Assembly (NCBI RefSeq): GCF_041886205.1
Contig: NZ_CP169029.1
Source of the DNA: Escherichia coli
GTDB taxonomy: Bacteria > Pseudomonadota > Gammaproteobacteria > Enterobacterales > Enterobacteriaceae
Length of the DNA stretch: 64,000 nt
Direction: 5' to 3' (one strand)
The notes beneath the pieces are model-generated. The model searched no databases and had not been told where the DNA came from. It worked only from the letters and a program-made list of their open reading frames with translations. Below, piece by piece: positions 37,810-64,000 of the stretch. Numbering within the stretch: position 1 is the stretch's first letter; each line of letters starts with the position of its first letter. Made by a program: the position numbers and the translations under genes.

Positions 37810-39173
37810 GACAGAAATAGGATATTGCCGGGCTCAGCCGGGACCCGGAAAACGCCAACGGCAGCATTGCACCGATATTTGACAGGGAGAAAGAGCAGAA
37901 GCGTCTTCAGGAAGCGCAGGTTATCAGCCAGATTAGCGGTCAGATGAGTAACATCGTCATGACGTATGGCGAAACTGAAGCGATGAAAGCAGCCAGGAAA
38001 GAGCATCCTGGCATGAGCGATGCACAGTTGCGGGAGACTCCGGAATACAGAGAGGTCATGAAAGGCTACGGTACGGGCAGTACGCCGCAGATGGTGGTAC
38101 AGGCCATCACAGGCGTGCTGGGCGGACTGAATGCAGGGAATCCGGGGCAGGTACTGGCTGGCGGTCTGAATCCGGCAGTGGCACAGCTTATAAAACAGGC
38201 CACCGGCGATAACCGGGAAGCAAACCTGATGGCTCACGCAGTCTGGGGAGCGCTTGCCGCACAACTGGGCGGAAACAATGCGGCTTCCGGTGCTGCAGGG
38301 GCATTCAGCGGTGAACTTGCAGCCCGGTATATCATTGATAACTACTACGGTGGTCGTACCGATAACCTGAGTGAACAGGAACGTCAGCAAATCAGCATGC
38401 TGGCCACCATTGCCTCAGGTATTGCGGGCGGGCTTGTCGGCAACAGTACAAGTGCTGCCGGTACGGGGGCACAGGCAGGCAGGAACTCGGTTGAGAATAA
38501 TGCGCTGAGTCTGGTTGCCAGAGGCTGTGCGGTCGCAGCACCTTGCAGGACTAAAGTTGCAGAGCAGTTGCTGGAAATCGGGGCGAAAGCGGGCATGGCC
38601 GGGCTTGCCGGGGCGGCAGTCAAGGATATGGCCGACAGGATGACCTCCGATGAACTGGAGCATCTGATTACCCTGCAAATGATGGGTAATGATGAGATCA
38701 CTACTAAGTATCTCAGTTCGTTGCATGATAAGTACGGTTCCGGGGCTGCCTCGAATCCGAATATCGGTAAAGATCTGACCGATGCGGAAAAAGTAGAACT
38801 GGGCGGTTCCGGCTCAGGAACCGGTACACCACCACCATCGGAAAATGATCCTAAGCAGCAAAATGAAAAACCTGTAGATAAGCTTAATCAGAAGCAAGAA
38901 AGTGCGATTAAGAAGATCGATAACACTATAAAAAATGCTCTGAAAGATCATGATATTATTGGAACTCTCAAGGATATGGATGGTAAGCCAGTTCCTAAAG
39001 AGAATGGAGGATATTGGGATCATATGCAGGAAATGCAAAATACGCTCAGAGGATTAAGAAATCATGCGGATACGTTGAAAAACGTCAACAATCCTGAAGC
39101 TCAGGCTGCGTATGGCAGAGCAACAGATGCTATTAATAAAATAGAATCAGCCTTGAAAGGATATGGAATATGA
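37810..39173 (+). CDS. orphan module 3: pretoxin region, VENN and a distinct C-terminal toxin domain, derived from a different cdiA allele
   Basis: ...[26 protein letters not shown]... parallels the main cdiA pretoxin region (34010-34740); VENN within [14 protein letters not shown] track 37944..39173. Confidence 0.7.
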
Positions 39174-39556
39174 TTACCTTACGTAAATTGATTGGAAACA
39201 TCAATATGACAAAAGAGCCTGAGCAACAATCACAGCTTGAACTCTGGTTCGAACGTATCATAGATGTGCCTCTTGAAAAGTTAACAGTGGAAGATCTTTG
39301 CCGCGCTATCCGACAAAATTTATGTATTGATCAGTTGATGCCAAGAGTGTTGGAAGTTCTAACTAAAGAGCCGTTAGCGGGTGAATATTACGATGGTGAA
39401 CTAATTGCAGCTTTATCAACGATAAAAGGAGAAGATCTAAAAGATCAGAAAAGTACCTTTACCCAAATAAGGCAACTTATAAACCAGCTAGAACCGTCAG
39501 ATATTAACGATGATTTAAGAAAAGATATATTAAAAATCAATCAGATAATTGTATAA
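39170..39556 (+). CDS. orphan cdiI immunity 3 (128 aa, soluble)
   Basis: ATGA overlap with the module 3 stop; product [43 protein letters not shown]... Confidence 0.6.
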
Positions 39557-39588: not shown

Positions 39589-41380
39589 GTGTGCCGGGCA
39601 TGTTCAGCAGCTCGGGGGTGAAAGTCCCCTGTCCAGCCTGATGGTGGCGAAGGACTAGCGAAGCGCAAGGGCGTCGTCGTAAGGCGGGGTCTGAAGGAAG
39701 CGTGAAGCAAATCCATGACCTGACGAACAGAAATCCGATACGAGGCCTACCCGGTTGGCGGAGCAAGCAAAGAATTGCGAAGGCCATAACCATCAAGAAC
39801 CGGGGGGTAAATCGGACAGGTGTGTGGTGAAGGCGTCTGAACTTACCCCGGGAGGCCTGTCCGTCGTTCTGTATCTAGAACTTAGCGTACCGTAAGGGGC
39901 GCTGACCGGCGGACAGGAGTCAGCAGAGGGCATAGTAGGGCATGACACCCGAAGGCCCGAACGGTAATGAGTGACGAGTATCAACGGAGGTTCTGAACGG
40001 TCATGCAGCAGAAAACGCATCGCGCCCCTGAGGCCGGAGAACGGGGTGAAGCCCCGAACGCCGCCCTTCCGGGGGCTGAAACCGTGCAGGCACCGACGAA
40101 CAGAGAAAGTCCGTCGTCAACAGTGTGGCTGATGGAAGCCATTTGTGAACCAGTCAATCTCAGGCAAGCCCTGAAAAGAGTTAAAGCCAACAAAGGTGCA
40201 GCGGGAGTCGATGGTATGCGCGTAAGCGAACTGCCGGACTACCTGAGGCACCACTGGCCAGAGCTGAAAGCGCAACTACTGTCTGGCAGATACCGCCCAT
40301 CTCCTGTGAGAAGAGTGTCCATACCGAAGCCCGGCGGCGGCGAACGTCTGCTGGACATCCCGACGGTGGTGGATCGCTTCATCCAGCAGGCGATGATGCA
40401 GGTATTGCAGGGGCACTGTGGGATAGCTCGTTCAGCGATAACAGCTACGGGTTCCGTCCCGGTCGTTCGGCCCACCAGGCAGTGATACAGGCCCGGGAAC
40501 ATATCGGGGCCGGGTATCACTGGGTGGTCGACCTCGATCTGGAGAAGTTCTTCGACCGGGTAAATCACGATGTGCTGATGAGCCGGATAGAGAAACGAGT
40601 ATCGGATAAACGGGTGTTGTCACTTATCCGCAGGTTCATGAATGCAGGGGTGATGGACGCAGGTCTGGTAAGGCCGGTGACAGAAGGAACGCCGCAGGGC
40701 GGCCCACTGTCGCCGCTGCTATCGAACCTGCTGCTTGACGACCTCGACAAGGAACTGGAGAAACGTGGTCTGAAGTTCGTGCGGTACGCAGACGACTGTA
40801 ATGTCTACGTGAAAAGCGAACGGGCAGACAACCGGATCATGGCGGGGTTGACGCACTGGCTGAGCCATAAACTGAAGCTGAAGGTCAACGCGAAGAAGAG
40901 TGCTGTAGCACGCCCTGAAACGCGCAAGTTCCCTGGATACAGCTTCATAAGGGGGCGGAAGGTATGGTGCGTGGTATCGCCGGAGTCGATAAAACGGTTC
41001 AAAATGCGGATAAGAGCACTGACCGGACGCAACACAGGGAGAAGCCTTGAACAGCTAACCCGGTTGCTAAAACGATATCTGACGGGCTGGAAAAGTTACT
41101 ACGGGCTGAACCAGAGGCCATCGCTGATGCGAGAGCTGAACGGATGGATAAGGCGCAGTCGAGGCGTAAGCAAGGACCTTGCGGCGCAAACAGCAGGAAG
41201 CTGCCATAAAGAGTGGCGGATAAGCTGTAGTCCGGCACTGAATATAGCACTCCCCAATAATCTGTTCTCCAGACTGGGCCTGCCAGAAGTATAGGCAGGC
41301 GACGATCAACATAACCGAACCGCCGTATACGGCCCCATACGTACGGTGGTGTGGGAGGAAGCTGATCGTGAGATCAGCTC
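39589..41380 (+). mobile_element. bacterial group II intron (about 1.8 kb) with a frameshifted intron-encoded protein
   Basis: 5' GTGTG at 39589; internal ORFs encode reverse-transcriptase motifs including the YADD box; a domain V-like hairpin (ACCGCCGTATACGG...ACGTACGGTGGT) lies near 41318-41350; the 3' boundary is approximate (about 20 bp either way). Confidence 0.7.
40003..41294 (+). pseudogene. group II intron reverse transcriptase/maturase split into two ORFs by a frameshift
   Basis: ORF 40003..40485 ends ...QGHCGIARSAITATGSVPVVRPTRQ while the next frame reads SSFSDNSYGFRPGRSAHQAVIQAREHIG... and continues into ORF 40482..41294, which carries ...FVRYADDCNVYV... Confidence 0.75.
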
Positions 41381-49024: not shown

Positions 49025-49317
49025 CGAAAGGACGAACTTTTCTAAGGGCTTTTTTCCTTAAGTGGGGCTTGGATATTCGGAGTGGATTGTATTTAAAACG
49101 AATATCCAAGCAATCAAACTCTAGTCTACAAAACACATAAATTCATGCACGTATCCATCCATGCTGTAGATAATCAGCTGTGATAATAGCAGCCGCTACT
49201 GAAGCAATTGAATGGAAAGCGTCGTCTTTTGTGCGTAACCGGCTCATTTAAACCGTCTGGTCTGTTTCCTCCGGCTCTACAAAAATAATGTCCATCATTT
49301 TTAATGGACACTATCGT

Positions 49318-49536
49318 ATGAAACACCGGACCTGGATCACTGAAGCTTTACGTCTTCACTTTGAAGAACATTTACCCCGGGTTGTGGCCGGGCGTCGCCT
49401 GGGTGTACCAAAATCAACAGTTTGTAGTATGTTCGTGCGCTTTCGGAGAGCTGGCCTTTCGTGGCCTTTGCCCGCAGGCATGTCGGAGCAGGAACTTGAT
49501 GCCTGCCTTTACGGACAATTTTCCACGGTACCAGTC
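49318..49536 (+). pseudogene. possible N-terminal fragment of an IS21-family IstA-like HTH, read in frame with the next tnpA
   Basis: MKHRTWITEALRLHFEEHLPRVVAGRRLGVPKSTVCSMFVRFRRAGLSWPLPAGMSEQELDACL resembles IS21-family IstA N-termini; it lies inside ORF 49288..49965. Confidence 0.35.
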
Positions 49537-49572
49537 GTACGTCCTGAAAGCACCGTTATATCCGAAGCCCCC

Positions 49573-49965
49573 GTGGTAAAAAAACGTCCCCGGCGGCCCA
49601 ACTTCCCTTATGAGTTTAAAATCGCCTTAGTGGAGCAGTCACTGCAGCCCGGAGCCTGTGTGGCGCAGATCGCCCGGGAAAACGGAATCAACGATAACCT
49701 GCTCTTCAACTGGCGCCATCAATACCGGAAAGGTGGCCTGCTGCCTTCCGGAAAAAATATGCCGGCACTGCTTCCCGTGACGTTAACGCCGGAGCCGGAT
49801 AATAAAATCCCGGCCCCCGCACAGGAACCAGAGCAGATAAATACACCGTCCGACAGTCTGTGTTGTGAGCTGGTTCTGCCGGCCGGAACTCTCAGGCTTA
49901 AAGGTAAACTGACGCCGGCGTTATTACAGACACTTATCCGCGAAATAAAAGGGAGCAGCCACTGA
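49573..49965 (+). CDS. tnpA: IS66-family TnpA (GTG start assumed)
   Basis: ...KKRPRRPNFPYEFKIALVEQSLQPGACVAQIARENGINDNLLFNWRHQY...; in-frame GTG at 49573. Confidence 0.65.
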   Translation: MVKKRPRRPNFPYEFKIALVEQSLQPGACVAQIARENGINDNLLFNWRHQYRKGGLLPSGKNMPALLPVTLTPEPDNKIPAPAQEPEQINTPSDSLCCELVLPAGTLRLKGKLTPALLQTLIREIKGSSH

Positions 49966-50312
49966 TGATATCTCTCCCTGCAGGTTCGCGTATCTGGCTG
50001 GTTGCAGGTATCACCGATATGCGAAATGGCTTTAACGGCCTGGCATCAAAAGTTCAGAACGTCCTGAAGGATGACCCGTTCTCCGGACACCTGTTCATCT
50101 TCCGCGGACGCCGGGGTGACCAGATAAAAGTGTTGTGGGCTGACAGTGACGGACTGTGCCTCTTCACCAAACGCCTGGAGCGGGGCCGCTTCGTCTGGCC
50201 AGTCACCCGTGACGGCAAGGTGCACCTTACTCCGGCTCAGTTATCCATGCTTCTTGAAGGTATCAACTGGAAGCACCCGAAACGAACGGAACGCGCTGGA
50301 ATCCGCATATAA
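49965..50312 (+). CDS. tnpB: IS66-family TnpB
   Basis: 115 aa, [31 protein letters not shown]... Confidence 0.85.
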   Translation: MISLPAGSRIWLVAGITDMRNGFNGLASKVQNVLKDDPFSGHLFIFRGRRGDQIKVLWADSDGLCLFTKRLERGRFVWPVTRDGKVHLTPAQLSMLLEGINWKHPKRTERAGIRI

Positions 50313-50331
50313 CCCGTTGTAAAGTGAGGAT

Positions 50332-51903
50332 ATGGACACCTCACTTGCTCATGAGAACGCCCGCCTGCGGGCACTGTTGCAGACGCAACAGGACACCATC
50401 CGCCAGATGGCTGAATACAACCGCCTGCTCTCACAGCGGGTGGCGGCTTATGCTTCCGAAATCAACCGGCTGAAGGCGCTGGTTGCGAAACTGCAACGTA
50501 TGCAGTTCGGTAAAAGCTCAGAAAAACTTCGTGCAAAAACCGAACGGCAGATACAGGAAGCACAGGAGCGAATCAGCGCACTTCAGGAAGAAATGGCGGA
50601 AACGCTGGGTGAGCAATATGACCCGGTACTGCCATCCGCCCTGCGCCAGTCTTCAGCCCGTAAACCGTTACCGGCCTCACTTCCCCGTGAAACCCGGGTT
50701 ATCCGGCCGGAAGAGGAATGCTGTCCTGCCTGTGGTGGTGAACTCAGTTCTCTGGGATGTGATGTGTCAGAGCAACTGGAGCTTATCAGCAGCGCCTTTA
50801 AGGTTATCGAAACACAACGTCCGAAACAGGCCTGTTGCCGGTGCGACCATATCGTGCAGGCACCAGTACCTTCAAAACCCATTGCACGCAGTTATGCCGG
50901 AGCGGGGCTTCTGGCCCATGTTGTCACCGGGAAATATGCAGACCATCTGCCGTTATACCGCCAGTCAGAAATATACCGTCGTCAGGGAGTGGAGCTGAGC
51001 CGTGCCACACTGGGGCGCTGGACAGGTGCTGTTGCTGAACTGCTGGAGCCGCTGTATGACGTCCTGCGCCAGTATGTGCTGATGCCCGGTAAAGTCCATG
51101 CTGATGATATCCCCGTCCCGGTCCAGGAGCCGGGCAGCGGTAAAACCCGGACAGCCCGGCTGTGGGTCTACGTCCGTGATGACCGTAACGCCGGTTCACA
51201 GATGCCCCCGGCGGTCTGGTTCGCGTACAGTCCGGACCGGAAAGGTATCCATCCACAAAATCACCTGGCCGGTTACAGCGGTGTGCTTCAGGCCGATGCT
51301 TACGGTGGTTACCGGGCGTTATACGAATCCGGCAGAATAACGGAAGCCGCGTGTATGGCTCATGCCCGGAGAAAAATCCACGATGTGCATGCAAGAGCGT
51401 CCACCTACATCACCACGGAAGCCCTGCAGCGTATCGGTGAACTGTATGCCATCGAGGCAGAGGTCCGGGGCTGTTCAGCAGAACAGCGTCTGGCGGCAAG
51501 AAAAGCCAGAGCCGCGCCACTGATGCAGTCACTGTATGACTGGATACAGCAACAGATGAAAACACTGTCGCGTCACTCAGATACGGCAAAAGCGTTCGCA
51601 TACCTGCTGAAACAGTGGGATGCACTGAACGTGTACTGCAGTAATGGCTGGGTGGAAATCGACAACAACATCGCAGAGAACGCCTTACGGGGAGTGGCCG
51701 TAGGCCGGAAAAACTGGATGTTCGCGGGTTCCGACAGCGGTGGTGAACATGCGGCGGTGTTGTACTCGCTGATCGGCACATGCCGTCTGAACAATGTGGA
51801 GCCAGAAAAGTGGCTGCGTTACGTCATTGAACATATCCAGGACTGGCCGGCAAACCGGGTACGCGATCTGTTGCCCTGGAAAGTTGATCTGAGCTCTCAG
51901 TAA
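50332..51903 (+). CDS. tnpC: IS66-family TnpC transposase (523 aa)
   Basis: Full length with CPACGGEL motif and conserved C-terminal ...[28 protein letters not shown]... Confidence 0.85.
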
Positions 51904-51906
51904 ATA

Positions 51907-53367
51907 TCAATACGGTTCTGACGAGTCGCTTACTTTTGTGCTGTCGCCAAAATCACTAATCCCTCTCACAATAAGCGCTGGAACTCCCTGCTTTTCGCAG
52001 GCATCAAATACCCCATAGGCTTCCATTTCGGCAACACAGGCTTTGTCATGAAGCGACCTGAAACGTTCTAGTAAAGCAGGATCGCGGATAAGAAGCTCTC
52101 CTGATGCGATAGTGGCTGAAGAAACAATTATCCCAGCAGCTACGTCTCCAGCCTGCGAATTTTCAGGCATTTCGAGTCCTATAGCCTGTGCCCGTTCGCC
52201 AAGACGTGCGGATAGTGACGTTGTTGCAAGGTAAGTATTGAGGTTTTGTTTAGTTGGCATATGGAGACATAATATTTCAGGTCGAGGAGCAAACTTCCCA
52301 CCTTCTAATGCGGCTGCACTTTCATAATAAATGACACGCTCAGAAATAATGACTTCACCTAGCACCATTTTTTCTCTCAACCCCGCCGCAATCCCCATCA
52401 TCAAGACTTTTTGGGGTTTGAATTCCGACAACAACATGGTAGTAATAGCTGAAGCATTCACATTTCCAGCACTAGCGAAAGACGCCACTATGCCAGTTAC
52501 TGGGCCATCTGAGCGTTGTATGGATGTGGACCAGAAATGTATTCCATTTGATGTGAGCCGCGGAGATTCATCATCAGCTATGCCAAATACTTTCTTGGCT
52601 GCAGCAAGTTCAACTGGTAGAGCTGTCAAAATCAACACATTTGGAGTATGCAGCAACTGTTGTGCAGCCCATTCAGCTTTAAGCAATTCAACTGCGATTT
52701 CTGAAAGTCGTTCCAGTCCATAGTAAGGTTCCTGTAACGATAAAGTGTCGAGCTGATTTTTTACGGCTTCACCGGTGCAAGGGAACATAGACAGCGGCTC
52801 TGCATAAAAACGTGCATGTAGGCCTAAAGCACCTTTTCCGTCATCGCAAATTCCCCCAAGCTCCAAGTCAAACGGTAATATGGGGTGGTTGGCTTTACGC
52901 ATTTTACTCGCACGATCGGAAACGCCTTTTCCTCCACCTAATGCAATCATGGCTGTGGCAGCATCAACCTGCTCGCTTCCAATATTTCCTCCAGTAATGA
53001 GATCATCATCTAGATAGCTGACATCAGCAAATCTAGCTGCCTGAAGTTTACGAATAAGCATCCGATTCTCTTCAGACATTTTCTCCCGCATTGCAGAACG
53101 CGACGTGACGATCTTGAGTTGGTGGGCTGGCGTATAATTCTCCATTAAATCTACAGCTTCTTTTACTATCGTCCAGTCGAAGGTCAGGAGATCCCCATTT
53201 TCATTAACAGGTTCTCCTGCCAAATAGACAACTAGTCCCACATTTGCATCAAGGATGCTCTTCGTCAATGCTCGAACGAAACTATGTGCTCGATCAATAT
53301 AAAGTTTTTCTGTATTTTTGGATATACTTCCAGCGATCAGAACATACTCATTATTAGTATTTGTCAT
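51907..53367 (-). CDS. two-domain defence-effector candidate: N-terminal Rossmann-like putative ligand-sensing domain (SLOG-like?) fused to a C-terminal nucleoside-phosphorylase (PNP/MTA-nucleosidase) domain; the 3' end is replaced by IS66 terminal sequence
   Basis: ORF 51907..53382, ATG at 53367. C-terminal half ...KVLMMGIAAGL...GEVIISERVIYYES...CVAEMEAYGVFDACEKQGVPALIVRGISDFGDSTK is phosphorylase-like; N-terminal half has ...YVLIAGSIS...VGLVVYLAG...IALGGGKGV... The last 8 codons (VSDSSEPY) are read from the reverse complement of the IS66-5 terminal repeat. Confidence 0.6.
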   Translation of the reverse strand: MTNTNNEYVLIAGSISKNTEKLYIDRAHSFVRALTKSILDANVGLVVYLAGEPVNENGDLLTFDWTIVKEAVDLMENYTPAHQLKIVTSRSAMREKMSEENRMLIRKLQAARFADVSYLDDDLITGGNIGSEQVDAATAMIALGGGKGVSDRASKMRKANHPILPFDLELGGICDDGKGALGLHARFYAEPLSMFPCTGEAVKNQLDTLSLQEPYYGLERLSEIAVELLKAEWAAQQLLHTPNVLILTALPVELAAAKKVFGIADDESPRLTSNGIHFWSTSIQRSDGPVTGIVASFASAGNVNASAITTMLLSEFKPQKVLMMGIAAGLREKMVLGEVIISERVIYYESAAALEGGKFAPRPEILCLHMPTKQNLNTYLATTSLSARLGERAQAIGLEMPENSQAGDVAAGIIVSSATIASGELLIRDPALLERFRSLHDKACVAEMEAYGVFDACEKQGVPALIVRGISDFGDSTKVSDSSEPY

Positions 53368-53396
53368 CACAATTCTTCCCAAAGGAGTATTACTTG

Positions 53397-54296
53397 TTAC
53401 TGTTTAAGTAAGGCATAGATTTCATCCTTGTTTTTTAATGCTAACTGTAATGCTTCCGGCGCCTGATGTGACTGAGTCTCTGTAAGATTTAACTGGAAAA
53501 GAAGGTAGTGCAGCAAAGCTTGTCGGCATTCCAGATGGATTTCTCCGTCGATCATTGCATAATCTCTCTCAATAAGGTTTCGTTGAGCAAGGCATAGTCC
53601 AGGATGCGCTATAAGAATAATTTTGATGAATGTATTCCACGCTAAATCACCATTAGCCCTCTCTTCATCGGGTCCGGCGTTTTGTGCCTGCACTATTCGC
53701 GACAATAAAAAGTCCCTATATTCACCACGTTTATGACACCATGCTCTTGTGTGCCAGCGATAACCATCATGGACTAATGAATGAGGAGTCAAGGTTCGTT
53801 TACTGCCTTGAGGGTCACTCATGGATTGATAAATAACATGAACAGCCTCATTTTCACGTATAGCTCGTAATATTTGACTTACGACATCAGTGTCCAGTCT
53901 ACGTAACAGTCGTGGAACCGCTGCAACGGGTGAGCGCCAGCCCAGAAAGCTTCCAAAATGAATTTCAGGTTGTATTGCCACTCGCAGCAAATCATTCAGA
54001 TAACATTCCAGAGAGCTGGTCATATAAACTGGCTGAAACAATTTCGTTGAACGGTAAACTCGGGAACTCATATCGTACTCAAGATTATCGGGGGCTAACT
54101 TAGTATATTCACTAAGATCCAGCGAAGCTTGAGGTACTGATATGCCGAAAAAATCAGTGAGGCTGCTACGATTGATTTGCCCATCCCATCGAAGTCGATA
54201 ATCAATAAATTCAAGCCGACGCTCTTGGCCCCATCTCGCACCTTGCCGTCCTTTTTGGCTGTCTTGCTTATCCCCTTCTCTAAAGTTATCTGGCAT
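53397..54296 (-). CDS. WYL-domain transcriptional regulator (CapW/BrxR-like)
   Basis: 299 aa; WYL-type core ...DGYRWHTRAWCHKRGEYRDFLLSRIV...; stop is 29 nt upstream of the phosphorylase-gene start; divergent from the CBASS operon. Confidence 0.65.
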   Translation of the reverse strand: MPDNFREGDKQDSQKGRQGARWGQERRLEFIDYRLRWDGQINRSSLTDFFGISVPQASLDLSEYTKLAPDNLEYDMSSRVYRSTKLFQPVYMTSSLECYLNDLLRVAIQPEIHFGSFLGWRSPVAAVPRLLRRLDTDVVSQILRAIRENEAVHVIYQSMSDPQGSKRTLTPHSLVHDGYRWHTRAWCHKRGEYRDFLLSRIVQAQNAGPDEERANGDLAWNTFIKIILIAHPGLCLAQRNLIERDYAMIDGEIHLECRQALLHYLLFQLNLTETQSHQAPEALQLALKNKDEIYALLKQ

Positions 54297-54395
54297 CTTA
54301 GTTCCCGGTAGCGTATAAAAAATATCTCAATATAAAAAGTAGACGCAGAATAAAAACTGAACGTATAATAATGCTACGCTATAGGGCGGTAAGGT

Positions 54396-54433
54396 GCAAC
54401 CATCACCTCAGTCACTTCTGAGGTGATGGTTGC
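54396..54433. promoter_or_regulatory. perfect 16-bp inverted repeat with 6-bp spacer (GCAACCATCACCTCAG-TCACTT-CTGAGGTGATGGTTGC); candidate operator in the divergent promoter region
   Basis: Lies between the WYL gene start (54296) and the nucleotidyltransferase start (54466), 32 bp upstream of the latter. Confidence 0.5.
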
Positions 54434-54465
54434 AGTTTTCATGAATGATCTTCGGAAGGATGTGA

Positions 54466-55410
54466 ATGCCACTCACTAATACTCAGATCCGATACTACGA
54501 CAGCAATGTACTGCGTTTGCCTAAGGATAAGCGTGAAACCTACAATGCCCAAGTAGATCGGCTTATTACAGCGTTACGTAAAAAACTGAAAGATCAGGAT
54601 AAAATAACAATAAAACGTGTCGTTAAAGCTGGTTCGTTTGCTAAACACACTATTCTACGCAAAACCTCAGACAGTCAGGTCGATGTGGATGTTGTGTTTT
54701 ACGTTAGTGGAGAGAAAGTTGCTGAGGAAACCTTCGCAAGCCTGAGCGAAAAAATTTACGAAGCCTTACTTAAAATGTATCCCAACAAAGCTGTAGAAGA
54801 TTTCGAGATTCAACGTAAGGCTGCTACTGTTTCTTTTGTCGGGACTGGATTAGATGTTGATATTGTTCCCGTCATCGAAAATCCGGACAAAGAAGGCTAT
54901 GGATGGCAGTTTGACCGTATCGATGGTTCGAAGACAGAGACTTGTGCTCCTTGCCAGATCAAATTTGTGAAAGATCGCAAAGACCAAGACCCGGACTTTC
55001 GTACTTTAGTACGCTTAGCTAAACGTTGGCGTACCAACATGGAATGCCCACTTAAGTCATTTCATATAGAACTAATCATGGCTCATGTACTAGAAGTCAA
55101 TGGAAAAGATGGTTCGTTGGAGAAGCGATTTCGGGATTTTCTACTGTACATTGCTGAATCAGGATTAAAAGAAGTTATCACCTTCCCTGAAAATAGCACT
55201 ATACCAGCATTTTCCCATCCAGTTGTCATACTGGATCCTGTTTGCGATACGAACAACGTTACCAGCCGTATTACCGAGGATGAGCGAAAAGAGATCGTCC
55301 GGATTGCTGAGGAAAGTTGGGCGACGGCAAATTTTGCGTCGGTAGAAGGAGACTATGATATCTGGAAGGAGCTGTTTGGTCGTTCATTTAAAGTGGAGGA
55401 TACAGCATGA
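54466..55410 (+). CDS. cGAS/DncV-like nucleotidyltransferase (CBASS CD-NTase), 314 aa
   Basis: GGAAGGA RBS; nucleotidyltransferase signature ...VKAGSFAKHTILRKTSDSQVDVDVVFYV... (GS motif and acidic DVD); first gene of a four-to-five-gene operon. Confidence 0.7.
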   Translation: MPLTNTQIRYYDSNVLRLPKDKRETYNAQVDRLITALRKKLKDQDKITIKRVVKAGSFAKHTILRKTSDSQVDVDVVFYVSGEKVAEETFASLSEKIYEALLKMYPNKAVEDFEIQRKAATVSFVGTGLDVDIVPVIENPDKEGYGWQFDRIDGSKTETCAPCQIKFVKDRKDQDPDFRTLVRLAKRWRTNMECPLKSFHIELIMAHVLEVNGKDGSLEKRFRDFLLYIAESGLKEVITFPENSTIPAFSHPVVILDPVCDTNNVTSRITEDERKEIVRIAEESWATANFASVEGDYDIWKELFGRSFKVEDTA

Positions 55411-55895
55411 GTTACTCCTCAACTGAAACATCGACTTATACCACAACAGACGTTGAAGCAGTCATGCGACGCATCACAGCTGACTTAGTGATGATTGCCG
55501 CCAGTACCGGTGCGATAACTGAATCAAAAGCACGTGAGTATGCTCACGATATAGAACTCTTAGCAAAAAATGGATATCTGGATTACGTCGATGTGACCCT
55601 TATAAGCAATGGCGTTGAACAGAAAGCAACCCGGTTTCATGTGAATGAGTCCGGAGAATTGGCAAATGACAGACCTGGAGACGCTCGTTGGCCGAGAATT
55701 CAGGGGGCTTATCTGCGGATTGTTGTGAACAACCGGAGTACCTACGATCAGGCTGCGAGGCAAAAGCTTTCAGGTAAGATGAAAATATCGTGGTCGCCAT
55801 GTAGTGATGACATCAGTCATTCAGGTTTGACCCAAAGTGGTGGTCGTGAATATTCCAGCAATGGTTATGGTATGCAACGTAAGGATTACAATTAA
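55407..55895 (+). CDS. small CBASS accessory protein, HORMA-like by position (162 aa)
   Basis: ATGA overlap with the nucleotidyltransferase gene; size and position between CD-NTase and AAA+ ATPase match Cap7-type HORMA proteins; no motif can be verified by eye. Confidence 0.45.
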   Translation: MSYSSTETSTYTTTDVEAVMRRITADLVMIAASTGAITESKAREYAHDIELLAKNGYLDYVDVTLISNGVEQKATRFHVNESGELANDRPGDARWPRIQGAYLRIVVNNRSTYDQAARQKLSGKMKISWSPCSDDISHSGLTQSGGREYSSNGYGMQRKDYN

Positions 55896-56791
55896 TGAGC
55901 AAGAGTAGTGTTTTCGACTCAGTGATTGATTTACCGCAGCGCGAACTGACAGAGCGAGAGAACATTTTACTTGGCTTTGAAAGTCGTTATGAGAGTGTCC
56001 ACAACCAACTCAACCTGCTGCTTAACCAAGGGCAACTCCTTGACTGGAGCAAGAAGTACCATAAGAGCGTTTTACCGCTCTGCAAGCTCGTTGCTGAGCA
56101 GTATCCGCTTGTTATTTTTCATGGTGATGTAGGAACAGGTAAAACAGCAACTGCTGAGTGCATCGCGAATCGTCTTGTCCGCGAGTCTCGCACTGAAGAT
56201 TCGGCCCTCTTTAAGCTCAGCAATCGGGTCCGTGGTTCCGGAAAAGTGGGGGAGATGGGGACGCTACTAACTCAGGCATGGGCAGAAGTGTGCGAGGCTG
56301 CGGGTAAAAATCGCAGAGCAATACTGATTATTGATGAAGGGGATTCAATTGCAGCTTCCCGTTCTCAAAACCACAGCCATCATGAAGATAAAGTAGCAGT
56401 AAATACTTTAATTCAAGGAGTGGATGAGCTACGAAAATTTGGCGGCCGGGTTGTGGTAATTTTATGTACTAATAGACTATCCGTCCTTGACCCTGCACTT
56501 CGTAGGCGAGCAGCGATTGTCGAAGAATTTACTCGCCCCGGGCTCACAGAACGAGAATCGCTTTTTCGCATGGATCTTGGAGGGATGGGATTGTCAGATA
56601 GTCAATATCGTCAACTAGCGGTGGCAACTGGTGAGAAAGAAAATCTGCCAGCATGGACATACTCTGATATCCGTACGCGCCTCTATCCCGCAGCAATGTC
56701 AAGAGCGTTTCCTGAACGGGCTTTAAGTTTTAATGATTTGATGGAATTATTGAAAATAATGAGGCCTTCCCCCGTCATGGGAGATATATAA
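55895..56791 (+). CDS. AAA+ ATPase, TRIP13/Pch2-like (Cap6-like), 298 aa
   Basis: Walker A GDVGTGKTATAECIANRL, Walker B ILIIDEGD; start overlaps the preceding stop. Confidence 0.6.
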   Translation: MSKSSVFDSVIDLPQRELTERENILLGFESRYESVHNQLNLLLNQGQLLDWSKKYHKSVLPLCKLVAEQYPLVIFHGDVGTGKTATAECIANRLVRESRTEDSALFKLSNRVRGSGKVGEMGTLLTQAWAEVCEAAGKNRRAILIIDEGDSIAASRSQNHSHHEDKVAVNTLIQGVDELRKFGGRVVVILCTNRLSVLDPALRRRAAIVEEFTRPGLTERESLFRMDLGGMGLSDSQYRQLAVATGEKENLPAWTYSDIRTRLYPAAMSRAFPERALSFNDLMELLKIMRPSPVMGDI

Positions 56792-56887
56792 GGCCCCATT
56801 TCTTAATCAACTGATATACTATAAAAATCAACTCCAATTCCGGTACATTTGTTGATTTACGGTGCACTTCTTGCAAGCAGGAACTAT

Positions 56888-57451
56888 ATGAGAACTGATA
56901 AAGAAATTTTCGTTTCAGTTGATGTGGAAACATCAGGCCCTATTCCGGGGAAATACAGTATGTTATCGATAGGTGCTTGTGTGGCATTTGAACCATCAAA
57001 GCAATTTTCATGTTACCTTAAACCGATATCTGAAGATTTTATCCCTGCGGCTATGGAAGTGACTGGGTTATCGCTGGAGAAGTTGCACGTCGATGGTTTG
57101 GATCCTGTTGATGCAATGGTTCAATTTAAAGAATGGATTAATTCGGTCGTAAAGGAAGATGAGACTGTAGTTTTTGTTGGTTTCAATGCTTCATTTGACT
57201 GGAGCTTTATTAATTATTATTTCCATGTATATTTAGGTGATAATCCTTTTGGCATCGCAGCACTCGATATAAAATCAATGTATTTTGGCGTTTCTCACGC
57301 CTCATGGAGATTAACACGTTCTAGTGAAATAGCGAAAGTTGTCAAACCTGAGACATATGGTGATCATGATGCATTACATGATGCCCGATATCAGGCTGAA
57401 CTATTCCGGTTGATCGATAAATTGAGCGAGAAGAAAAAATTAGATCGATGA
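56888..57451 (+). CDS. DEDD-family 3'-5' exonuclease (DnaQ-like; CBASS Cap18-like accessory)
   Basis: Exo motifs [10 protein letters not shown] (DxE) and ...[10 protein letters not shown]...; ATG at 56888 with GCAGGA RBS (ORF track start 56849 is a TTG). Confidence 0.6.
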
Positions 57452-57538: not shown

Positions 57539-57994
57539 ATGAATGACGAATTTAGCTGTGCAAGTGAGCATATCTGGAAATATTTCGAATTGCATGCACA
57601 ACAAAGAATGACTGTTTTCAATTTTTACATTGCGATAACAGGACTTCTTGCTGCTGGCATTGGGGTTACTCTCCAACAAGGAGGGAAGTATGTATTATTT
57701 ACTTCACTTATGGGGGTGTTTGTAGCATTTATTTCATTTATTTTCTGGAAATTGGATCAGCGAGTGTCGATTTTAATAAAAAATGCTGAAATTGCTCTAC
57801 AAGATCTTGAATGTCAATTTTCCAATGAAAAGCTGAGGATAATCACTAAAGATAATAGCAGTCATTTGCTAAACTTAGGCATTAGTTCTTCTTGGACTTA
57901 TGGAAAATGCTTCCGCATTTCATTTGTTATAGTAGGTCTTACTGGGATATTACTTGCGATTACACCTTTTCTGATGAAAGTCTCGACTTCTTAA
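57539..57994 (+). CDS. small multi-pass membrane protein (151 aa); candidate membrane-disrupting effector
   Basis: Three hydrophobic helices (VFNFYIAITGLLAAGIGVTL, YVLFTSLMGVFVAFISFIFW, ISFVIVGLTGILLAITPFL); last gene of the operon; its stop directly abuts an IS2-like end. Confidence 0.5.
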   Translation: MNDEFSCASEHIWKYFELHAQQRMTVFNFYIAITGLLAAGIGVTLQQGGKYVLFTSLMGVFVAFISFIFWKLDQRVSILIKNAEIALQDLECQFSNEKLRIITKDNSSHLLNLGISSSWTYGKCFRISFVIVGLTGILLAITPFLMKVSTS

Positions 57995-59330
57995 TACATT
58001 TGAGCCGGCCCCTTGAAACGCCAGACAGTGGATGTATCTTAAAATAAGAGATAGGCTTGGATATATGTCTAACACTAGTTCTAATTTTGAGATGACAGGA
58101 ACTTTGCTGGGGCAGGGGCTTCGTAAACGTAAAACTCCTCAGGAAAAAATTGACATTATTCAGCAGACAATGGAGCCTGGCATGACGGTGTCCCATGTGG
58201 CGCGTTTGCACAGTATTCAGCCCGGCCTGTTATTTAAGTGGAAAAAACAATATCTGGAAGGAAGTCTCACTGCTGTTGCTGCCGGAGAGGATGTTGTTCC
58301 TGCCTCAGAACTGGCTGCCGCTATAAAACAAATAAAAGAGTTACAGCGCTTTCTGGGTAAAAAACCATGGAAGTTGAGATCCTCAAAGAAGCAGTGGAGT
58401 ATGGTCAGTCGTAAAAATGGATAGCGCATGCGCCCTTGTTGCCAACGGACAAGGAATAACCATGGTAATCCGTATTCTGGACGTGTCGCGTGCGTAACTG
58501 GCACAACGGATGAAAATATCTGGTAATAAGCCGGATAAACGTCGTCGCAGATGTGATGAGGCTGCGGATGCGGAAGTGTTAGCACGCATCCTTGATATCA
58601 TCAGCGATATGCCGACATATGGCTATCGTCGTGTCCGGGCTATTCTCAGACGGCAGTCTTAACGAAGGACTGCAGTTCGTGAATGCAAATCGCGTTTATC
58701 GAATAATGAGCGAGAATAACCTGTTGTTATTACATGACAAACCTTCACGACCGCAGAGGGAACATAAAGGCCCGAATATCGGTGAAGGAAAGCGACCCGC
58801 GCTGGTGTGCCGATGGCTTTGAGTTCGGTTGTGATGATGACGAAAAACTGCGTGTCACGTTCGCACTGGACTGTTGCGATCTTGAATCCATAGACTGGGC
58901 CGCAAGCACGGGAGGTTATGGCAAAGCAACGGTGCAGGATGTCATGTCAGGAGCGATAGAAAAACGCTTTGGCGATAGACCGGGATGGCCCATCCAGTGG
59001 CTGACCGATAACGGTTCAGCTTATACAACTCATGAAACACGGCAGTTCGCCAGAGAGTTGAATCTGGAGCTCTGCACGACGGCAGTCAGTAGCCCTCAGA
59101 GTAATGGAATGAGAGAACGGTTCGTGAAAACGATGAAGAGCGATTACATCAGTATCATACCTAAACCGGACGTGTTAACGGCAGTAAAAAACCTTGCGGA
59201 GGCGTTCGAACACTATAACGAATAGCATCCTCATGGTGCCTTGGTTATCTCTCACCGAGGGAATATCAACGTCACTCGGTAACGTTAACTTAAGCTCAAC
59301 GGCTGTCTGGATATAGTGGTTCAAGGGCAC
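57995..59330 (+). mobile_element. degenerate IS2-like (IS3-family) element with fragmented orfA/orfB
   Basis: Left end resembles the IS2 left inverted repeat; orfA-like ORF 58032..58424 (...[78 protein letters not shown]...) and an orfB fragment 58734..59225 lacking the N-terminus. Confidence 0.7.
58734..59225 (+). pseudogene. IS2-like OrfB (InsD-like) transposase fragment
   Basis: ...[27 protein letters not shown]...[47 protein letters not shown]... matches the C-terminal two-thirds of InsD. Confidence 0.75.
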
Positions 59331-59692
59331 CTAAGGGCCTTATTTACGGTGTTTTCGCTGATTGGTTTACGCGGGTCATGTGCTCCCGTAAAGACCAGAC
59401 CATTTTCAACTGCCCATGTCTGAAGTTTTATCAGTATGGCTACAGCCTGTTTGCTGAGTGGCACAAGATGTGGTGTTCGCATCTTATGGATTCACCATTA
59501 TAGTGACATGTTCAAGATGATGATATATCTTTGAAAAGTGTTCTCTTTGCGAACGGTATAGAATTTCTAGCGTTACTTTTCATAATTACACTTTTTAGGG
59601 TTAGGCAGGCACAATCTATGCGCTGTCTTAGATAACTACATCCATTTTTACTGGACTACCACCAACAAAAATTTAGTGGTGCAGGAGAAAAC

Positions 59693-62600
59693 GTGAAGTA
59701 TCAGATAGTAGGTGGTGCTGGCCTGCACCGCAGCGAAACCAAAACAGTTGATATGATGGTTAAGCAGTTACCAGATAGTTGGTTTGGCTATGCTGGCTTA
59801 GTTGTTACTGATAGCCAAGGGTCGATGGAAATCGATATGCTAATTATTACTGCTGACCGTCTGCTATTAGTCGAGCTTAAAGAGTGGAATGGTAACATCA
59901 CATTTGAAGGGGGGAAGTGGCTGCAAAATGGTAAGTCACGAGGCAAAAGTCCCTATCAGATCAAGCGTGAGCATGCACTGCGACTAAAAGATTTGTTGCA
60001 GGAAGAGTTATCTCGTAAGCTGGGTTACTTTTTGCATGTTGAGGCTCATGTAGTGCTGTGTGGCACAGCTGGTCCTGAAAACTTGCCATTAAGTGAGAGG
60101 CGCTATGTTCATACCCGTGATGAATTCTTGACTATAGGTAACCCAAAAAATTACGAAAAGCTGGTGCAACACACTAACTTTTTTCATCTTTTTGAAGGGG
60201 GAAAGCCTCGACCAAATTCTGATGAGGCATTACCTATAATTAAGTCCTTCTTTGAAGGACCAAAAGTCAGGCCTTTGCCACTAAAAGAAAGCGGTTATCT
60301 TGCGAACGATAAGCCATTCTTTAGTCACCCTCACATGGTCTACAACGAATTCAGGGCTACCCACAAAGACAATAGTCAACACAGAGGTCTGCTACGGCAG
60401 TGGAACTTTGATGCCTTGGGTGTAGCAAACGCAATGCAAACATTGTGGGCTGAGATAGCTCTGCGTGAGACTCGAGTCGGTCGCCTAGTTCGTCATGGCA
60501 GCGCAACTATGCAGGATTATATGTTGCGTGCTGTAAGGGAACTATCCGAGGAGGATATAACTGATGATGCCCGTGAGCTGTATGAGTTACGCCGTAGTTT
60601 TAGCCGATTAGATGAGATTCTAGATAGCGAAGCTGACGGATGGAGTAAATCTGAGCGTATTGATCGCGTTCGTGCATTATTAGCTCCATTCTCGGAATTA
60701 CATAGCTTGGGTATCAGTCATTGTGATATTGACCCGCACAATCTATGGTACGCAGGGGATCAGAAGAGCATTGTCGTTACTGGCTTTGGCGCAGCCTCAC
60801 TGGAGGGACATAATAGCCTAGAGTCATTGCGTCCGATATTGCAAAGTGCTCCATATATTTTGCCCGAAGATGCTTTTGAAGAAGCAGTTGAGCCCTATCG
60901 CCTAGATGTATTCATGTTGGCTGTAATTGCTTATCGTATTTGTTTTGCAGGTGAATCATTACTGACTCCTGGACAGATGCCTGAATGGAGAGCTCCATTA
61001 ACTGATCCTTTTAGCGGTATTCTAAATAGCTGGTTTGAGCAAGCTCTTAACCTTGAGCCAAGTAAACGCTTTCCACGTGCGGACATAATGCTCAATGAGT
61101 TTAATGCAGCTACTAAGGAACATAGCCAAGAATTTGATGAAGCTAACCAGATTTATCAAGAATTAAAGCAAAACAAATTCTTTCGCGAAGGGATGAACAG
61201 CGTTGGTGTGTTAATTGAGTTTCCTCCACTTCCTGAACAGTTGTCTATGGTTTACTCTGCTCTTGCTGCTATTGCTACGACTGGCAGCATCAGTTATCAC
61301 TGTGAACAAGGTGGGAAAGCTCTGCAGGTAAAATTGTGGGATGGTGTTATTTTGACCCCTCAACAACCTGGTGTTAACCGCCGTATCCACGCTTTTAAGC
61401 AACGGATCGATAAGCTTACGCATATAAATCTGCCAACTCCTAAGGTGCAGTCCTATGGACTATTAGGACAAGGCGGCTTGTATGTAGTGAGCGAGTATGT
61501 GGATGGCCTACCGTGGTCACAGTTTATTGCTGAGAACGTGTTAGTACAATCCCAACGTTTTACAATTGCGGAAAAGTTGATCAACACCATTCATGCTTTT
61601 CATGAAAAGCAGTTACCTCATGGAGATCTTTGCCCAGAGAAACTGCTGGTACAAGTCGGGGAGCAGACAGTAATTACTCTGATTGGATTGCTTGAATTCA
61701 GTGATGAATTAACTGCAGATAATCGCTACCAGCCAGAGAATCCCGAAAGTACTGATGCTTTTGGGCGAGATTGCTTTGCAGTATATCGTATGGTGGAGGA
61801 GCTATTTAGTGAAGATATGCCAGTACTGGTGCAGGCTGAGCTAGAACGCGCAAAACAAACCGTTGACGGTATACCTATCGCGCTCGATCCTTTGCTGCAG
61901 TCAATTCGAGCACCGGAACAAGCTGAGATTAATCAAGTTGTGGCGTCTGAGTCACAGGATAAGGTAATTCCTGTTTGCTGGGGCACAGATGATTGGCCGC
62001 AAGAAGTGAAGCTTCTAGAACAAAATGATGGGATCTATTATTTTCAATGTAACTGGTCATCGAACCCACGCTTTGCGCATGAATTGCGTTGTTACATCAC
62101 TGGCCTAGGAGAGCGGCTATTGATAGACTTAGATCCTGATAATCGCACTATTAATAGAATAGTGTATGAAAAAGGATTATCGATCGAAGAAAGTATAAAG
62201 GCTGGTAAATATTCCCAGGCTAAAATTAATACTCAACTTTCATTACAACGTGGCTCACTTAATCAGCGTAATACTTTTATTGAACTACTGTTTAACCTCG
62301 AGCCAGTAATTGATGCCATCATTGAGCGAGCTAATCCTAATCAAGAGATGGATGAAGATGACTTCGATAGTAGTGAGTCAAGCCCAATTGAGTTATGGCA
62401 GGCATTATCTGATACAGAAGTAGACCTACGAGATATAGTCAACATCGACTCTACTGACTTTCAGGAATCACCGAGTGGTTGCTTACTCTACCCATATACT
62501 ACGGAATCCGGTGCTGACCTCAGCTTTGAACTTGATGATAAGATCATTGTTTATATTAAAGATAAGCGTGAATCAGTGCAATTAGGGGAATTGCAGCTAA

Positions 62601-64000
62601 GTGAGACTACGCCGAGTCTATTGGCTATTCGCTTTGATTTTGATGCTGCTCGTAAGCGAATTAGTAGCGGCAGCCAGCTACAATTGGAATCGATCCGTGA
62701 CAAATCATCAAGAGAGTTGCGTCAAAGAGCCCTTCAACGGGTAATTGAAAACAAAGCAGAGATCCAGCATCTGCCACAGTATTTTGATTACCACCAGAAA
62801 CCCTGCATGCAGCAAATGCAACCGCGGCCATCCGCGGAGACATTACGCGCACTTTATGATCAGCCTGGACAACGTTTTAATGAACAGCAGCTAATGGCAT
62901 TTCAACAGTTGGTCGAGTTTGGACCAGTTGGAGTTCTGCAGGGACCACCTGGAACAGGTAAAACAACATTTATTTCAAAATTTATTCACTATCTGTATCA
63001 ACATTGCGGTGTGAATAACATTCTTTTGGTCGGGCAATCCCATGCCTCTGTTGATAATGTAGCCATCAAGGCTCGAGAGCTCTGCCATACGAAAGGAATG
63101 GAACTGGATACAGTACGTATTGGTAATGAACTTATGATTGATGAGGGTATGCTAAGTGTTGCAACTAAAGCTCTTCAGCGACAGATTCAGCATAAATTTC
63201 ACCGTGAATATGATCTGCGAGTTAGCTCCCTAGGAAAGCGCCTAGGGATGGCCCCATTATTAGTCCAACAGTTATGTCAGTTACATCGTACGCTGAATCC
63301 CTTGATGGTGACATATGGCCAATATAGCCGTGAGCTGGATAAAGTAGAACAAATAAAGAGTAGTAGTATTAGTCATCAAGAGCGACTGGCTGAATTATTA
63401 GAACAAAGCAATCAGCTTAAACTGCGAACACAAGAAATTATTAACTCAATATTCGATGACAGCTTGCTGAAAACTCTTGTCTATGATGAAACCTTGATAA
63501 GACAGTTGGCTGAGCAAGTTGCCATACAATACAATTATAACAATCCAGAGAACCTTGAACGTTTTATGCAGCTATTGGAAATGAGCCAAGAGTGGATGGA
63601 TGTATTACGCGGCGGCGAGGCTGGATTTGATCGATTTATGTTCAAAAGTAAGCGATTGGTTTGTGGAACTCTTGTTGGTGTTGGGAATCGTCGACTAGAA
63701 CTAGCTGAGTCCAGCTTTGATTGGGTAATAGTTGATGAGGCTGGCCGAGCACAAGCTGCTGAATTGATGGTAGCGCTGCAATCAGGCAAGCGGGTGCTGT
63801 TGGTAGGGGATCATAAACAATTGCCACCATTCTATCATCAACAGCATCTTAAGTTAGCCTCTAAGAAATTAGAACTCGGGAAAGGGATCTTTTATGAGTC
63901 TGATTTTGAACGTGCTTTTAAAGCAACAGGCGGCGTAACACTCGATACTCAATATCGAATGGTAGAACCAATTGGCGAGTTAGTATCGGAGTGCTTTTAC
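59693..64000 (+). CDS. giant multidomain protein (>1,435 aa, continues past the window): N-terminal NERD nuclease-like domain, two protein-kinase-like domains, and a C-terminal superfamily-1 (Upf1/DNA2-like) helicase; defence-system candidate
   Basis: GTG at 59693 after AGGAGA RBS; frame verified stop-free at sampled stretches (59882-59940, 60062-60360, 60662-60780, 61502-61620, 61862-61980, 62162-62250, 62921-62970). NERD-like VKYQIVGGAGLHRS...EIDMLIITADRLLLVELKEWNG; kinase catalytic-loop-like LHSLGISHCDIDPHNLW and VTGFGAAS; helicase motifs GPPGTGKT, VIVDEAGRA, LVGDHKQLPP. Not in the ORF track because there is no stop in the window. Confidence 0.7.
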   Translation, partial: MKYQIVGGAGLHRSETKTVDMMVKQLPDSWFGYAGLVVTDSQGSMEIDMLIITADRLLLVELKEWNGNITFEGGKWLQNGKSRGKSPYQIKREHALRLKDLLQEELSRKLGYFLHVEAHVVLCGTAGPENLPLSERRYVHTRDEFLTIGNPKNYEKLVQHTNFFHLFEGGKPRPNSDEALPIIKSFFEGPKVRPLPLKESGYLANDKPFFSHPHMVYNEFRATHKDNSQHRGLLRQWNFDALGVANAMQTLWAEIALRETRVGRLVRHGSATMQDYMLRAVRELSEEDITDDARELYELRRSFSRLDEILDSEADGWSKSERIDRVRALLAPFSELHSLGISHCDIDPHNLWYAGDQKSIVVTGFGAASLEGHNSLESLRPILQSAPYILPEDAFEEAVEPYRLDVFMLAVIAYRICFAGESLLTPGQMPEWRAPLTDPFSGILNSWFEQALNLEPSKRFPRADIMLNEFNAATKEHSQEFDEANQIYQELKQNKFFREGMNSVGVLIEFPPLPEQLSMVYSALAAIATTGSISYHCEQGGKALQVKLWDGVILTPQQPGVNRRIHAFKQRIDKLTHINLPTPKVQSYGLLGQGGLYVVSEYVDGLPWSQFIAENVLVQSQRFTIAEKLINTIHAFHEKQLPHGDLCPEKLLVQVGEQTVITLIGLLEFSDELTADNRYQPENPESTDAFGRDCFAVYRMVEELFSEDMPVLVQAELERAKQTVDGIPIALDPLLQSIRAPEQAEINQVVASESQDKVIPVCWGTDDWPQEVKLLEQNDGIYYFQCNWSSNPRFAHELRCYITGLGERLLIDLDPDNRTINRIVYEKGLSIEESIKAGKYSQAKINTQLSLQRGSLNQRNTFIELLFNLEPVIDAIIERANPNQEMDEDDFDSSESSPIELWQALSDTEVDLRDIVNIDSTDFQESPSGCLLYPYTTESGADLSFELDDKIIVYIKDKRESVQLGELQLSETTPSLLAIRFDFDAARKRISSGSQLQLESIRDKSSRELRQRALQRVIENKAEIQHLPQYFDYHQKPCMQQMQPRPSAETLRALYDQPGQRFNEQQLMAFQQLVEFGPVGVLQGPPGTGKTTFISKFIHYLYQHCGVNNILLVGQSHASVDNVAIKARELCHTKGMELDTVRIGNELMIDEGMLSVATKALQRQIQHKFHREYDLRVSSLGKRLGMAPLLVQQLCQLHRTLNPLMVTYGQYSRELDKVEQIKSSSISHQERLAELLEQSNQLKLRTQEIINSIFDDSLLKTLVYDETLIRQLAEQVAIQYNYNNPENLERFMQLLEMSQEWMDVLRGGEAGFDRFMFKSKRLVCGTLVGVGNRRLELAESSFDWVIVDEAGRAQAAELMVALQSGKRVLLVGDHKQLPPFYHQQHLKLASKKLELGKGIFYESDFERAFKATGGVTLDTQYRMVEPIGELVSECFY

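Follow-up and report, generated by a model that had tools for sequence, protein, structure and literature searches.

A probable Mokosh type I locus of the long subtype on a tRNA-Phe island of Escherichia coli

The Mokosh anti-phage systems were described by Millman et al. (10.1101/2022.05.11.491447), who defined type I as a helicase-kinase protein (MkoA) accompanied by the product of a second gene (MkoB). Three Mokosh systems protected Escherichia coli in that study, and defense was lost on mutation of the helicase ATP site and of the PLD site (10.1101/2022.05.11.491447). Two type I systems are listed there as verified, that of H10407, with an MkoA of 1,215 amino acids (aa) annotated "Kinase-Helicase" and a 602-aa MkoB annotated "HTH-PLD," and that of SEC470, with a 1,652-aa "Kinase-Helicase" MkoA and a 478-aa MkoB annotated "HTH" (10.1101/2022.05.11.491447, Tables S2 and S8). 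A later review names NERD (PF08378) among the domains of Mokosh type I. In enterotoxigenic E. coli H10407, the type I system works through abortive infection, with a 128-aa phage protein as its trigger, and the T-even phages need both T4 Alt (an ADP-ribosyltransferase) and the phage DNA glucosyltransferase to evade a type I Mokosh. The latter requirement hints that DNA may be sensed or attacked by type I systems. The type I system of uropathogenic E. coli CFE331 (subtype not stated) has been tested against T4 and Bas37, and one proposal casts MOV10L1, together with the PLD nuclease Zucchini, as the eukaryotic counterpart of Mokosh. Here, we report on an open frame at the end of a 64,000-nucleotide stretch of E. 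coli DNA (RefSeq assembly GCF_041886205.1, contig NZ_CP169029.1; the whole stretch is referred to below as the window), which most likely encodes the large subunit of such a system.

The frame (59693 to 64000, plus strand) comprises 1,436 codons with 0 stops in the translation of the window. The chance of a stop-free run of this length is approximately (61/64)^1436 (i.e., roughly 1e-30). Its GTG at 59693 is the earliest start codon past the in-frame TAA at 59633 to 59635. Positions 59500 to 64000 match the E. coli ZYB39 chromosome (NZ_CP098234.1; mkoAB with its native upstream region at 4459427 to 4466125) at 100% identity, and the frame there continues for 216 further codons beyond the window end to a TAA, giving a protein of 1,652 aa (WP_000877065.1; "AAA domain-containing protein" in RefSeq), of which the window holds the first 87%. 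The original prediction had described an uninterrupted giant frame that runs off the window and might have partner genes beyond position 64,000. All of this was confirmed: the gene is real, reaches a normal stop, and is followed by mkoB at window-equivalent positions 64651 to 66198. The early stop and the absence of similar homologs that had been named as counterevidence were not observed, as the architecture recurs in more than 100 homologous clusters.

The portion of the protein encoded in the window scored 1061 bits against the PADLOC MkoA model (PDLC03921), and the full protein scored 1303.6 bits, with aa 2 to 1642 aligned to profile positions 2 to 1598 of 1607. The properties required of a Mokosh type I MkoA (i.e., an end-to-end profile match, a helicase with an intact ATP site, and one or more kinase-like domains) are all present, as is the required adjoining mkoB, a 515-aa gene that overlaps the mkoA stop. 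On the basis of these features, we predict, with a probability of about 85%, that the frame is the mkoA gene of a Mokosh type I anti-phage system of the "long" subtype and encodes the large subunit of this two-gene system. Its identity as a Mokosh type I MkoA, considered apart from the rest of this prediction, appears slightly firmer still. The locus is an already known defense system that standard tools identify directly, and its architecture, defense role, and NERD domain have all been published. Because that architecture was described and tested in 2022, we rate the interest of the locus lower than the original prediction did. The RefSeq entries "AAA domain-containing protein" and "hypothetical protein" can be renamed MkoA and MkoB of Mokosh type I. 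The features of the operon are listed below; coordinates preceded by L001 belong to a second numbering.

59676..59695, plus strand: translation start, consisting of an AGGAG Shine-Dalgarno sequence, a 5-nt spacer, and GTG (read from the sequence; the RefSeq start is identical)
59693..64000, plus strand: mkoA, codons 1-1436 of 1652, open frame; the 3' end lies outside the window, at window-equivalent 64651
59732..60058, plus strand: NERD (PD-(D/E)xK-type) nuclease-related domain, aa 14-122 (Pfam NERD, E 7.8e-14)
60350..61150, plus strand: kinase-like domain 1, aa ~220-486 (Pkinase, PD-T4-6, PglW, MAD6, and PDB kinase matches)
61310..61792, plus strand: kinase-like domain 2 (Bud32/Kdo-like), aa ~540-700 (PD-T4-6 and Bud32 profiles)
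61640-61698, plus strand: K650/G665/E668 segment, MkoA aa 650-668 (alignment of 102 homologs)
61967..62746, plus strand: two beta-rich domains linked by helices, aa ~759-1018
62876..64000, plus strand: Upf1-like superfamily 1B (SF1B) helicase core, aa 1062-1436 within the window (AAA_11, AAA_12)
64651-66198, window-equivalent (L001:25152-26699): mkoB, 515 aa, following mkoA (PADLOC MkoB PDLC03923, E 1.1e-61)

The stretch from 59500 to 64000 was found in 71 of the 5,426 complete E. coli genomes, with every copy being chromosomal, and no plasmid in PLSDB carries it. In 69 complete E. coli genomes, both mkoA and mkoB are intact, with at least 99% identity. Scans for promoters and terminators around the operon performed no better than on shuffled sequence.

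Residue conservation was counted in an alignment of 102 MkoA homologs. The putative catalytic residues of the NERD domain (D48, E61, and K63) are invariant (102/102). Kinase-like domain 1 matches the C-lobe of Pfam Pkinase (aa 317 to 418; E 1.5e-4), the PADLOC PD-T4-6 kinase (2.8e-14), NCBIfam MAD6 (3.7e-38), and PADLOC PglW (1.4e-22), and its nearest solved structures in the PDB are eukaryotic-type Ser/Thr kinases (e.g., CaMK1D; 9e-7). It carries HCD (343 to 345), N350, TGFG (363 to 366), and PED (391 to 393) motifs. H343, D345, R235, and E259 do not vary, and 96 of the 102 sequences retain N350. The TGF at 363 to 365 takes the place of DFG, and because this position reads (S/T)-G-F throughout the family, the metal-binding Asp of kinase-like domain 1 is absent throughout.

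Kinase-like domain 2 is recognized by PADLOC PD-T4-6 models (1.6e-13 over aa 563 to 666) and by the Bud32 model TIGR03724 (6.3e-7), while the Pfam signal is faint (aa 595 to 657; E 0.07). Its K547 is kept in 98/102 homologs, and H643-G-D645 (the HGD motif, 643 to 645) is invariant. The catalytic-loop Asn and both Asp residues of the "D-x-x-D" segment are kept in 84/102 clusters, whereas K650, G665, and E668 jointly replace N, D, and D in 16 clusters, including that of the present MkoA. These 16 clusters are full-length and are all at least 67% identical to this MkoA; within that range of identity, the clusters that carry a name are from Shewanella, Pantoea, Vibrio, and Photobacterium. Since the K/G/E clusters are full-length and the named ones are from several genera, they look like a stable variant under selection rather than decay. 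In lacking both metal ligands, the domain calls to mind CASK-type Mg-independent kinases or pseudokinases. Judging from these residues, classical Mg-dependent kinase chemistry is unlikely in either kinase-like domain of MkoA, and kinase activity is doubtful.

Of the two beta-rich domains that follow, the second probably corresponds to the barrel-and-stalk accessory of Upf1-family helicases. In the full protein, the helicase is covered by the Pfam domains AAA_11 (aa 1062 to 1382; 8.2e-47) and AAA_12 (aa 1402 to 1609; 5.7e-45). RecA1 carries an insertion, and RecA2, which corresponds to AAA_12, is split by the window end. Little or no variation occurs in Walker A (GPPGTGKT; 1084 to 1091), Walker B (DEAG; 1348 to 1351), motif III (GDHKQLPP; 1372 to 1379), the QG motif, or the RxNVAxSRA motif, and conservation to this degree thus extends to all of motifs I, II, III, V, and VI. 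The nearest solved relatives of the helicase are Upf1/NAM7 (1.2e-29) and DNA2 (1.1e-25), followed by Sen1 and IGHMBP2. Pfam, PADLOC, and NCBIfam matches thus support the originally predicted arrangement, in which NERD is followed by a pair of kinase-like domains and a Upf1/DNA2-like SF1 helicase, and the HxD loop and TGFG of the first kinase-like domain and the intact Walker A/B and motif III were all recovered as described. The proposed check of catalytic residues gave a divided answer, with the helicase motifs being kept and the kinase metal ligands missing.

The stop codon of mkoA and the start codon of mkoB overlap by one base (TAATG), and mkoA is translationally coupled to mkoB. The ZYB39 MkoB (WP_001294844.1) is a "hypothetical protein" in RefSeq. 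It combines a winged-helix domain with a PLD-like fold in a general layout like that of TrmB; Foldseek comparisons of the predicted structure matched NucT, Nuc, F13, and TrmB (E 3e-4 to 2e-3). H420 of MkoB is invariant. This MkoB subtype keeps a PLD-like fold without the PLD signature. Since the SEC470 MkoB is annotated as "HTH" only, a PLD active site is not universal among the accepted members of Mokosh type I.

For comparison with the SEC470 system, we used the SEC470-type locus of strain TUM1886. Both MkoA proteins are 1,652 aa long, contain NERD, two kinase-like domains, and a Upf1-like helicase, and align end to end (27% identity; E 4e-165). In both loci, mkoA is followed by an overlapping mkoB, and the two MkoB proteins, each with an N-terminal HTH and no recognizable PLD motif, also align (23% identity; E 3e-21). 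The SEC470-type protein differs in retaining the N, D, and D of kinase-like domain 2 (K650, G665, and E668 in the present MkoA) and in having N instead of G at the DFG position of kinase-like domain 1. The insertion sites also differ, the SEC470-type system lying in an integrase-bearing island beside clpA and the present locus at tRNA-Phe. The H10407 system has the same order of a kinase-helicase gene and an HTH-bearing MkoB gene, the helicase cores are homologous (E 1e-20), and a weak, in-register alignment links the MkoB proteins over their N-terminal ~120 aa. However, the 1,215-aa MkoA of H10407 can be aligned only over the helicase core, and its published domains are kinase and helicase, with no NERD. 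Its 602-aa MkoB contains two invariant HxK motifs, which indicate a true PLD, whereas the MkoB of the present locus contains none. Protection against phages has been shown for the SEC470 and H10407 systems and is extended to this variant only by homology.

More distant relatives share single modules. The MkoC protein of Mokosh type II belongs to the same Upf1-like helicase family, and the PADLOC MkoC model matched the RecA2 region of MkoA (3.8e-30). MkoC is, however, a single protein with the helicase and a canonical PLD fused at its C-terminus, and because its model covers only aa 1477 to 1628 of MkoA, the NERD and kinase-like regions have no MkoC counterpart. PglW and MAD6 share a homologous N-terminal module of NERD and a Ser/Thr-kinase-like domain, but their models reach only to approximately aa 420 to 490 of this MkoA, with scores far below the cutoffs. 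The eukaryotic SF1B helicases Upf1/NAM7, DNA2, Sen1/Senataxin, IGHMBP2, and MOV10L1 share the core and its motifs (1e-29 to 5e-20). They lack kinase-like domains and have other accessory domains and partners, so the likeness is confined to the motor. DNA2 couples a PD-(D/E)xK nuclease to a Upf1-like motor, as MkoA does. Searches of the PDB with the helicase and MkoB found no solved structure beyond the eukaryotic helicases, and separate searches with the NERD and helicase parts found no Nhi-like or other defense family beyond MkoA, MkoC, PglW, and weak P-loop matches.

A homolog search covering 5.8 billion proteins retrieved 119 homologous MkoA clusters, nearly all of 1,640 to 1,680 aa; those with names are mostly from Gammaproteobacteria. 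An overlapping gene of 500 to 550 aa without a Pfam match comes directly after the ~1,655-aa gene in all three of Xanthomonas, Tolumonas, and Vibrio, and the pair is flanked by unrelated housekeeping genes. The presence of mkoAB between unrelated housekeeping flanks in three genera indicates a self-contained two-gene cassette. In the present genome, mkoAB lies within an island at tRNA-Phe that was acquired horizontally and has a G+C content of ~43% (42.5 to 43.7% for the operon and island versus 50 to 54% in the core flank). The nearest relatives of this MkoA outside E. coli (75 to 85% identity) include clusters from Shewanella, Pantoea, and Vibrio, which fits the low G+C content of the operon.

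Several observations weigh against the assignment to a functional Mokosh type I system. Identity to the verified SEC470 system amounts to only 27% for MkoA and 23% for MkoB, and the island is rich in insertion sequence (IS) elements and pseudogenes. The DFG Asp is missing from both kinase-like domains, and the catalytic-loop Asn is additionally missing from domain 2. For MkoB, we found no Pfam match, no HxK(x4)D motif, and no significant match among PDB sequences, and a profile comparison with the double-HKD MkoB of the H10407 type (hhalign) gave an E value of 0.35, over the N-terminus only. Given the lack of a PLD signature or match at the sequence level, the textbook "PLD nuclease" is only putative for this locus. 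Furthermore, one group failed to purify Mokosh type I. Part of this evidence would also be expected of a remnant that has lost its function and is decaying among IS elements, for which the many IS copies and pseudogenes, the truncation of a neighboring CBASS-type effector by an extra IS66, the absence of equivalents of N650, D665, and D668 from kinase-like domain 2, and the missing HKD motif of MkoB would all be marks of degeneration. Yet both frames are intact and nearly identical in the 69 genomes mentioned above, the K/G/E substitutions are common to 16 full-length clusters from several genera, the catalytic residues of NERD and the helicase are all intact, and the SEC470 MkoB, which likewise has no annotated PLD, is part of a system verified to defend. 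We therefore consider a remnant improbable.

The original prediction likened the protein to PglW of BREX type 2, and the gene could accordingly encode a PglW-like kinase (BREX type 2/Pgl) or a MAD6-like kinase (MADS) with a methyltransferase and a phosphatase downstream. Homology of the NERD-kinase module (aa 10 to 486) to PglW (PADLOC, 1.4e-22; NCBIfam, 1.8e-22) and MAD6 (3.7e-38) speaks for this possibility. These matches are, however, limited to the first quarter of the protein: NCBIfam NF033442 (PglW) covered aa 14 to 417 only, at 79 bits against a cutoff of 990; PADLOC PglW covered aa 12 to 419 only; and NF047741 (MAD6) covered aa 10 to 486 only, at 131.4 bits against a cutoff of 460. The entire length is instead matched by MkoA, the downstream gene is mkoB, and the distant homologs in Xanthomonas, Tolumonas, and Vibrio carry the two-gene pair only. 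A BREX type 2 locus would also be expected to include pglX (methyltransferase), pglZ (phosphatase), and pglY (ATPase) as neighbors. A search for pglX/pglZ-like partners, which had been suggested as a check, found no methyltransferase or phosphatase among the 41 RefSeq-annotated features in the 44.5 kb around the gene in ZYB39, the strain of identical sequence, and thus no partner of this type is evident. The family suggested at first did not survive these comparisons, and a PglW- or MAD6-based system is almost certainly not what the locus encodes. A helicase-nuclease that serves a mobile element (i.e., in replication, transfer, or maintenance of the island) rather than immunity would suit the integrase-bearing tRNA-Phe island and the weak RecD/TraA-type helicase matches. 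These are marginal, with E values of 5e-4 to 4e-10 that lie far below the cutoffs, and involve P-loop motifs only. In Xanthomonas, Tolumonas, and Vibrio, the pair is surrounded by housekeeping genes and has no mobile-element genes in its vicinity, and homologs with the same architecture are experimentally anti-phage. This role is very improbable, and a Mokosh type I system remains the reading that we prefer.

For such a system, a mechanism can be outlined. MkoA and MkoB would associate as a complex, and the Upf1/DNA2-like motor would load on a phage-derived single strand (a transcript or a replication intermediate) and translocate along it, driven by ATP. Cutting would be performed mainly by the invariant D-E-K site of the NERD domain of MkoA. 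As the PLD-like domain of MkoB lacks the HKD signature, it would more probably bind nucleic acid or regulate than cut. The two kinase-like domains, in which metal-binding residues are missing, would for this reason act in this clade as a regulatory or sensing switch and not as classical kinases. The outcome would be destruction of the phage nucleic acid or abortive infection. We propose this division of labor between the domains of MkoA and MkoB tentatively, with the odds somewhat against it. It is possible, albeit doubtful, that the long subtype as a whole has moved cutting to NERD, with MkoB as a catalytically dead sensor or tether of PLD fold and winged helix (TrmB-like) and with the kinase-like region as a pseudokinase or CASK-like Mg-independent switch. 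The long subtype may in this respect depart from the textbook picture of a helicase plus a PLD nuclease. In any case, judging by sequence, the subtype indicates that a PLD active site can be dispensed with; its NERD site is the sole invariant nuclease signature, and kinase metal ligands have been lost without loss of the protein. The locus therefore sharpens the question of the Mokosh type I mechanism and offers direct mutational tests.

The defense-island setting that had been proposed for the gene was upheld. A complete-looking type III CBASS with a WYL-domain gene lies upstream of mkoA. An IS3-family pseudogene and an integrase fragment intervene, which indicates that CBASS and mkoA were juxtaposed by island rearrangement and are not one unit. 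The neighboring features are as follows.

49235-51932 (window): extra IS66 copy (tnpA, tnpB, tnpC), absent from ZYB39, with a 9-bp flanking duplication
51907-53382, minus strand: PN-superfamily/TIR CBASS-type effector
53397-57451 (window): type III CBASS and WYL, complete-looking (PADLOC)
53397-54296: WYL-domain gene, divergent, upstream of CBASS
54466-55410: CBASS cyclase
55407-55895: CBASS HORMA
55895-56791: CBASS TRIP13
56849-57451: CBASS DEDDh exonuclease effector
58092-59485: IS3-family transposase pseudogene (frameshift and internal stop) and a 156-nt integrase fragment, between CBASS and mkoA
L001:33557-37072, outside the window, minus strand: full-length Mokosh type II mkoC, 1,171 aa (PADLOC MkoC, 1,684 bits)
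37821-39556 (window; L001:1029-2764): orphan CdiA C-terminal toxin fragment (VENN pre-toxin domain, N-terminus missing) and cdiI (ZYB39 annotation, identical sequence)
40003-41294 (window; L001:3211-4502): reverse transcriptase in two overlapping open reading frames (160 and 270 aa), matching the N- and C-terminal parts of one reverse transcriptase profile

A 151-aa open reading frame that follows CBASS (57539 to 57994) had no PADLOC match. The IS66 copy was inserted ~85 nt within the 3' end of the PN-superfamily/TIR effector gene, and the last ~28 codons of the effector were thereby replaced. The split reverse transcriptase is probably a frameshifted group II intron or a defense-type reverse transcriptase. 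The mkoC gene lies ~8.4 kb beyond mkoB and adjoins the island integrase, where tRNA-Phe is also located; both Mokosh types (I and II) are therefore carried on one tRNA-Phe island.

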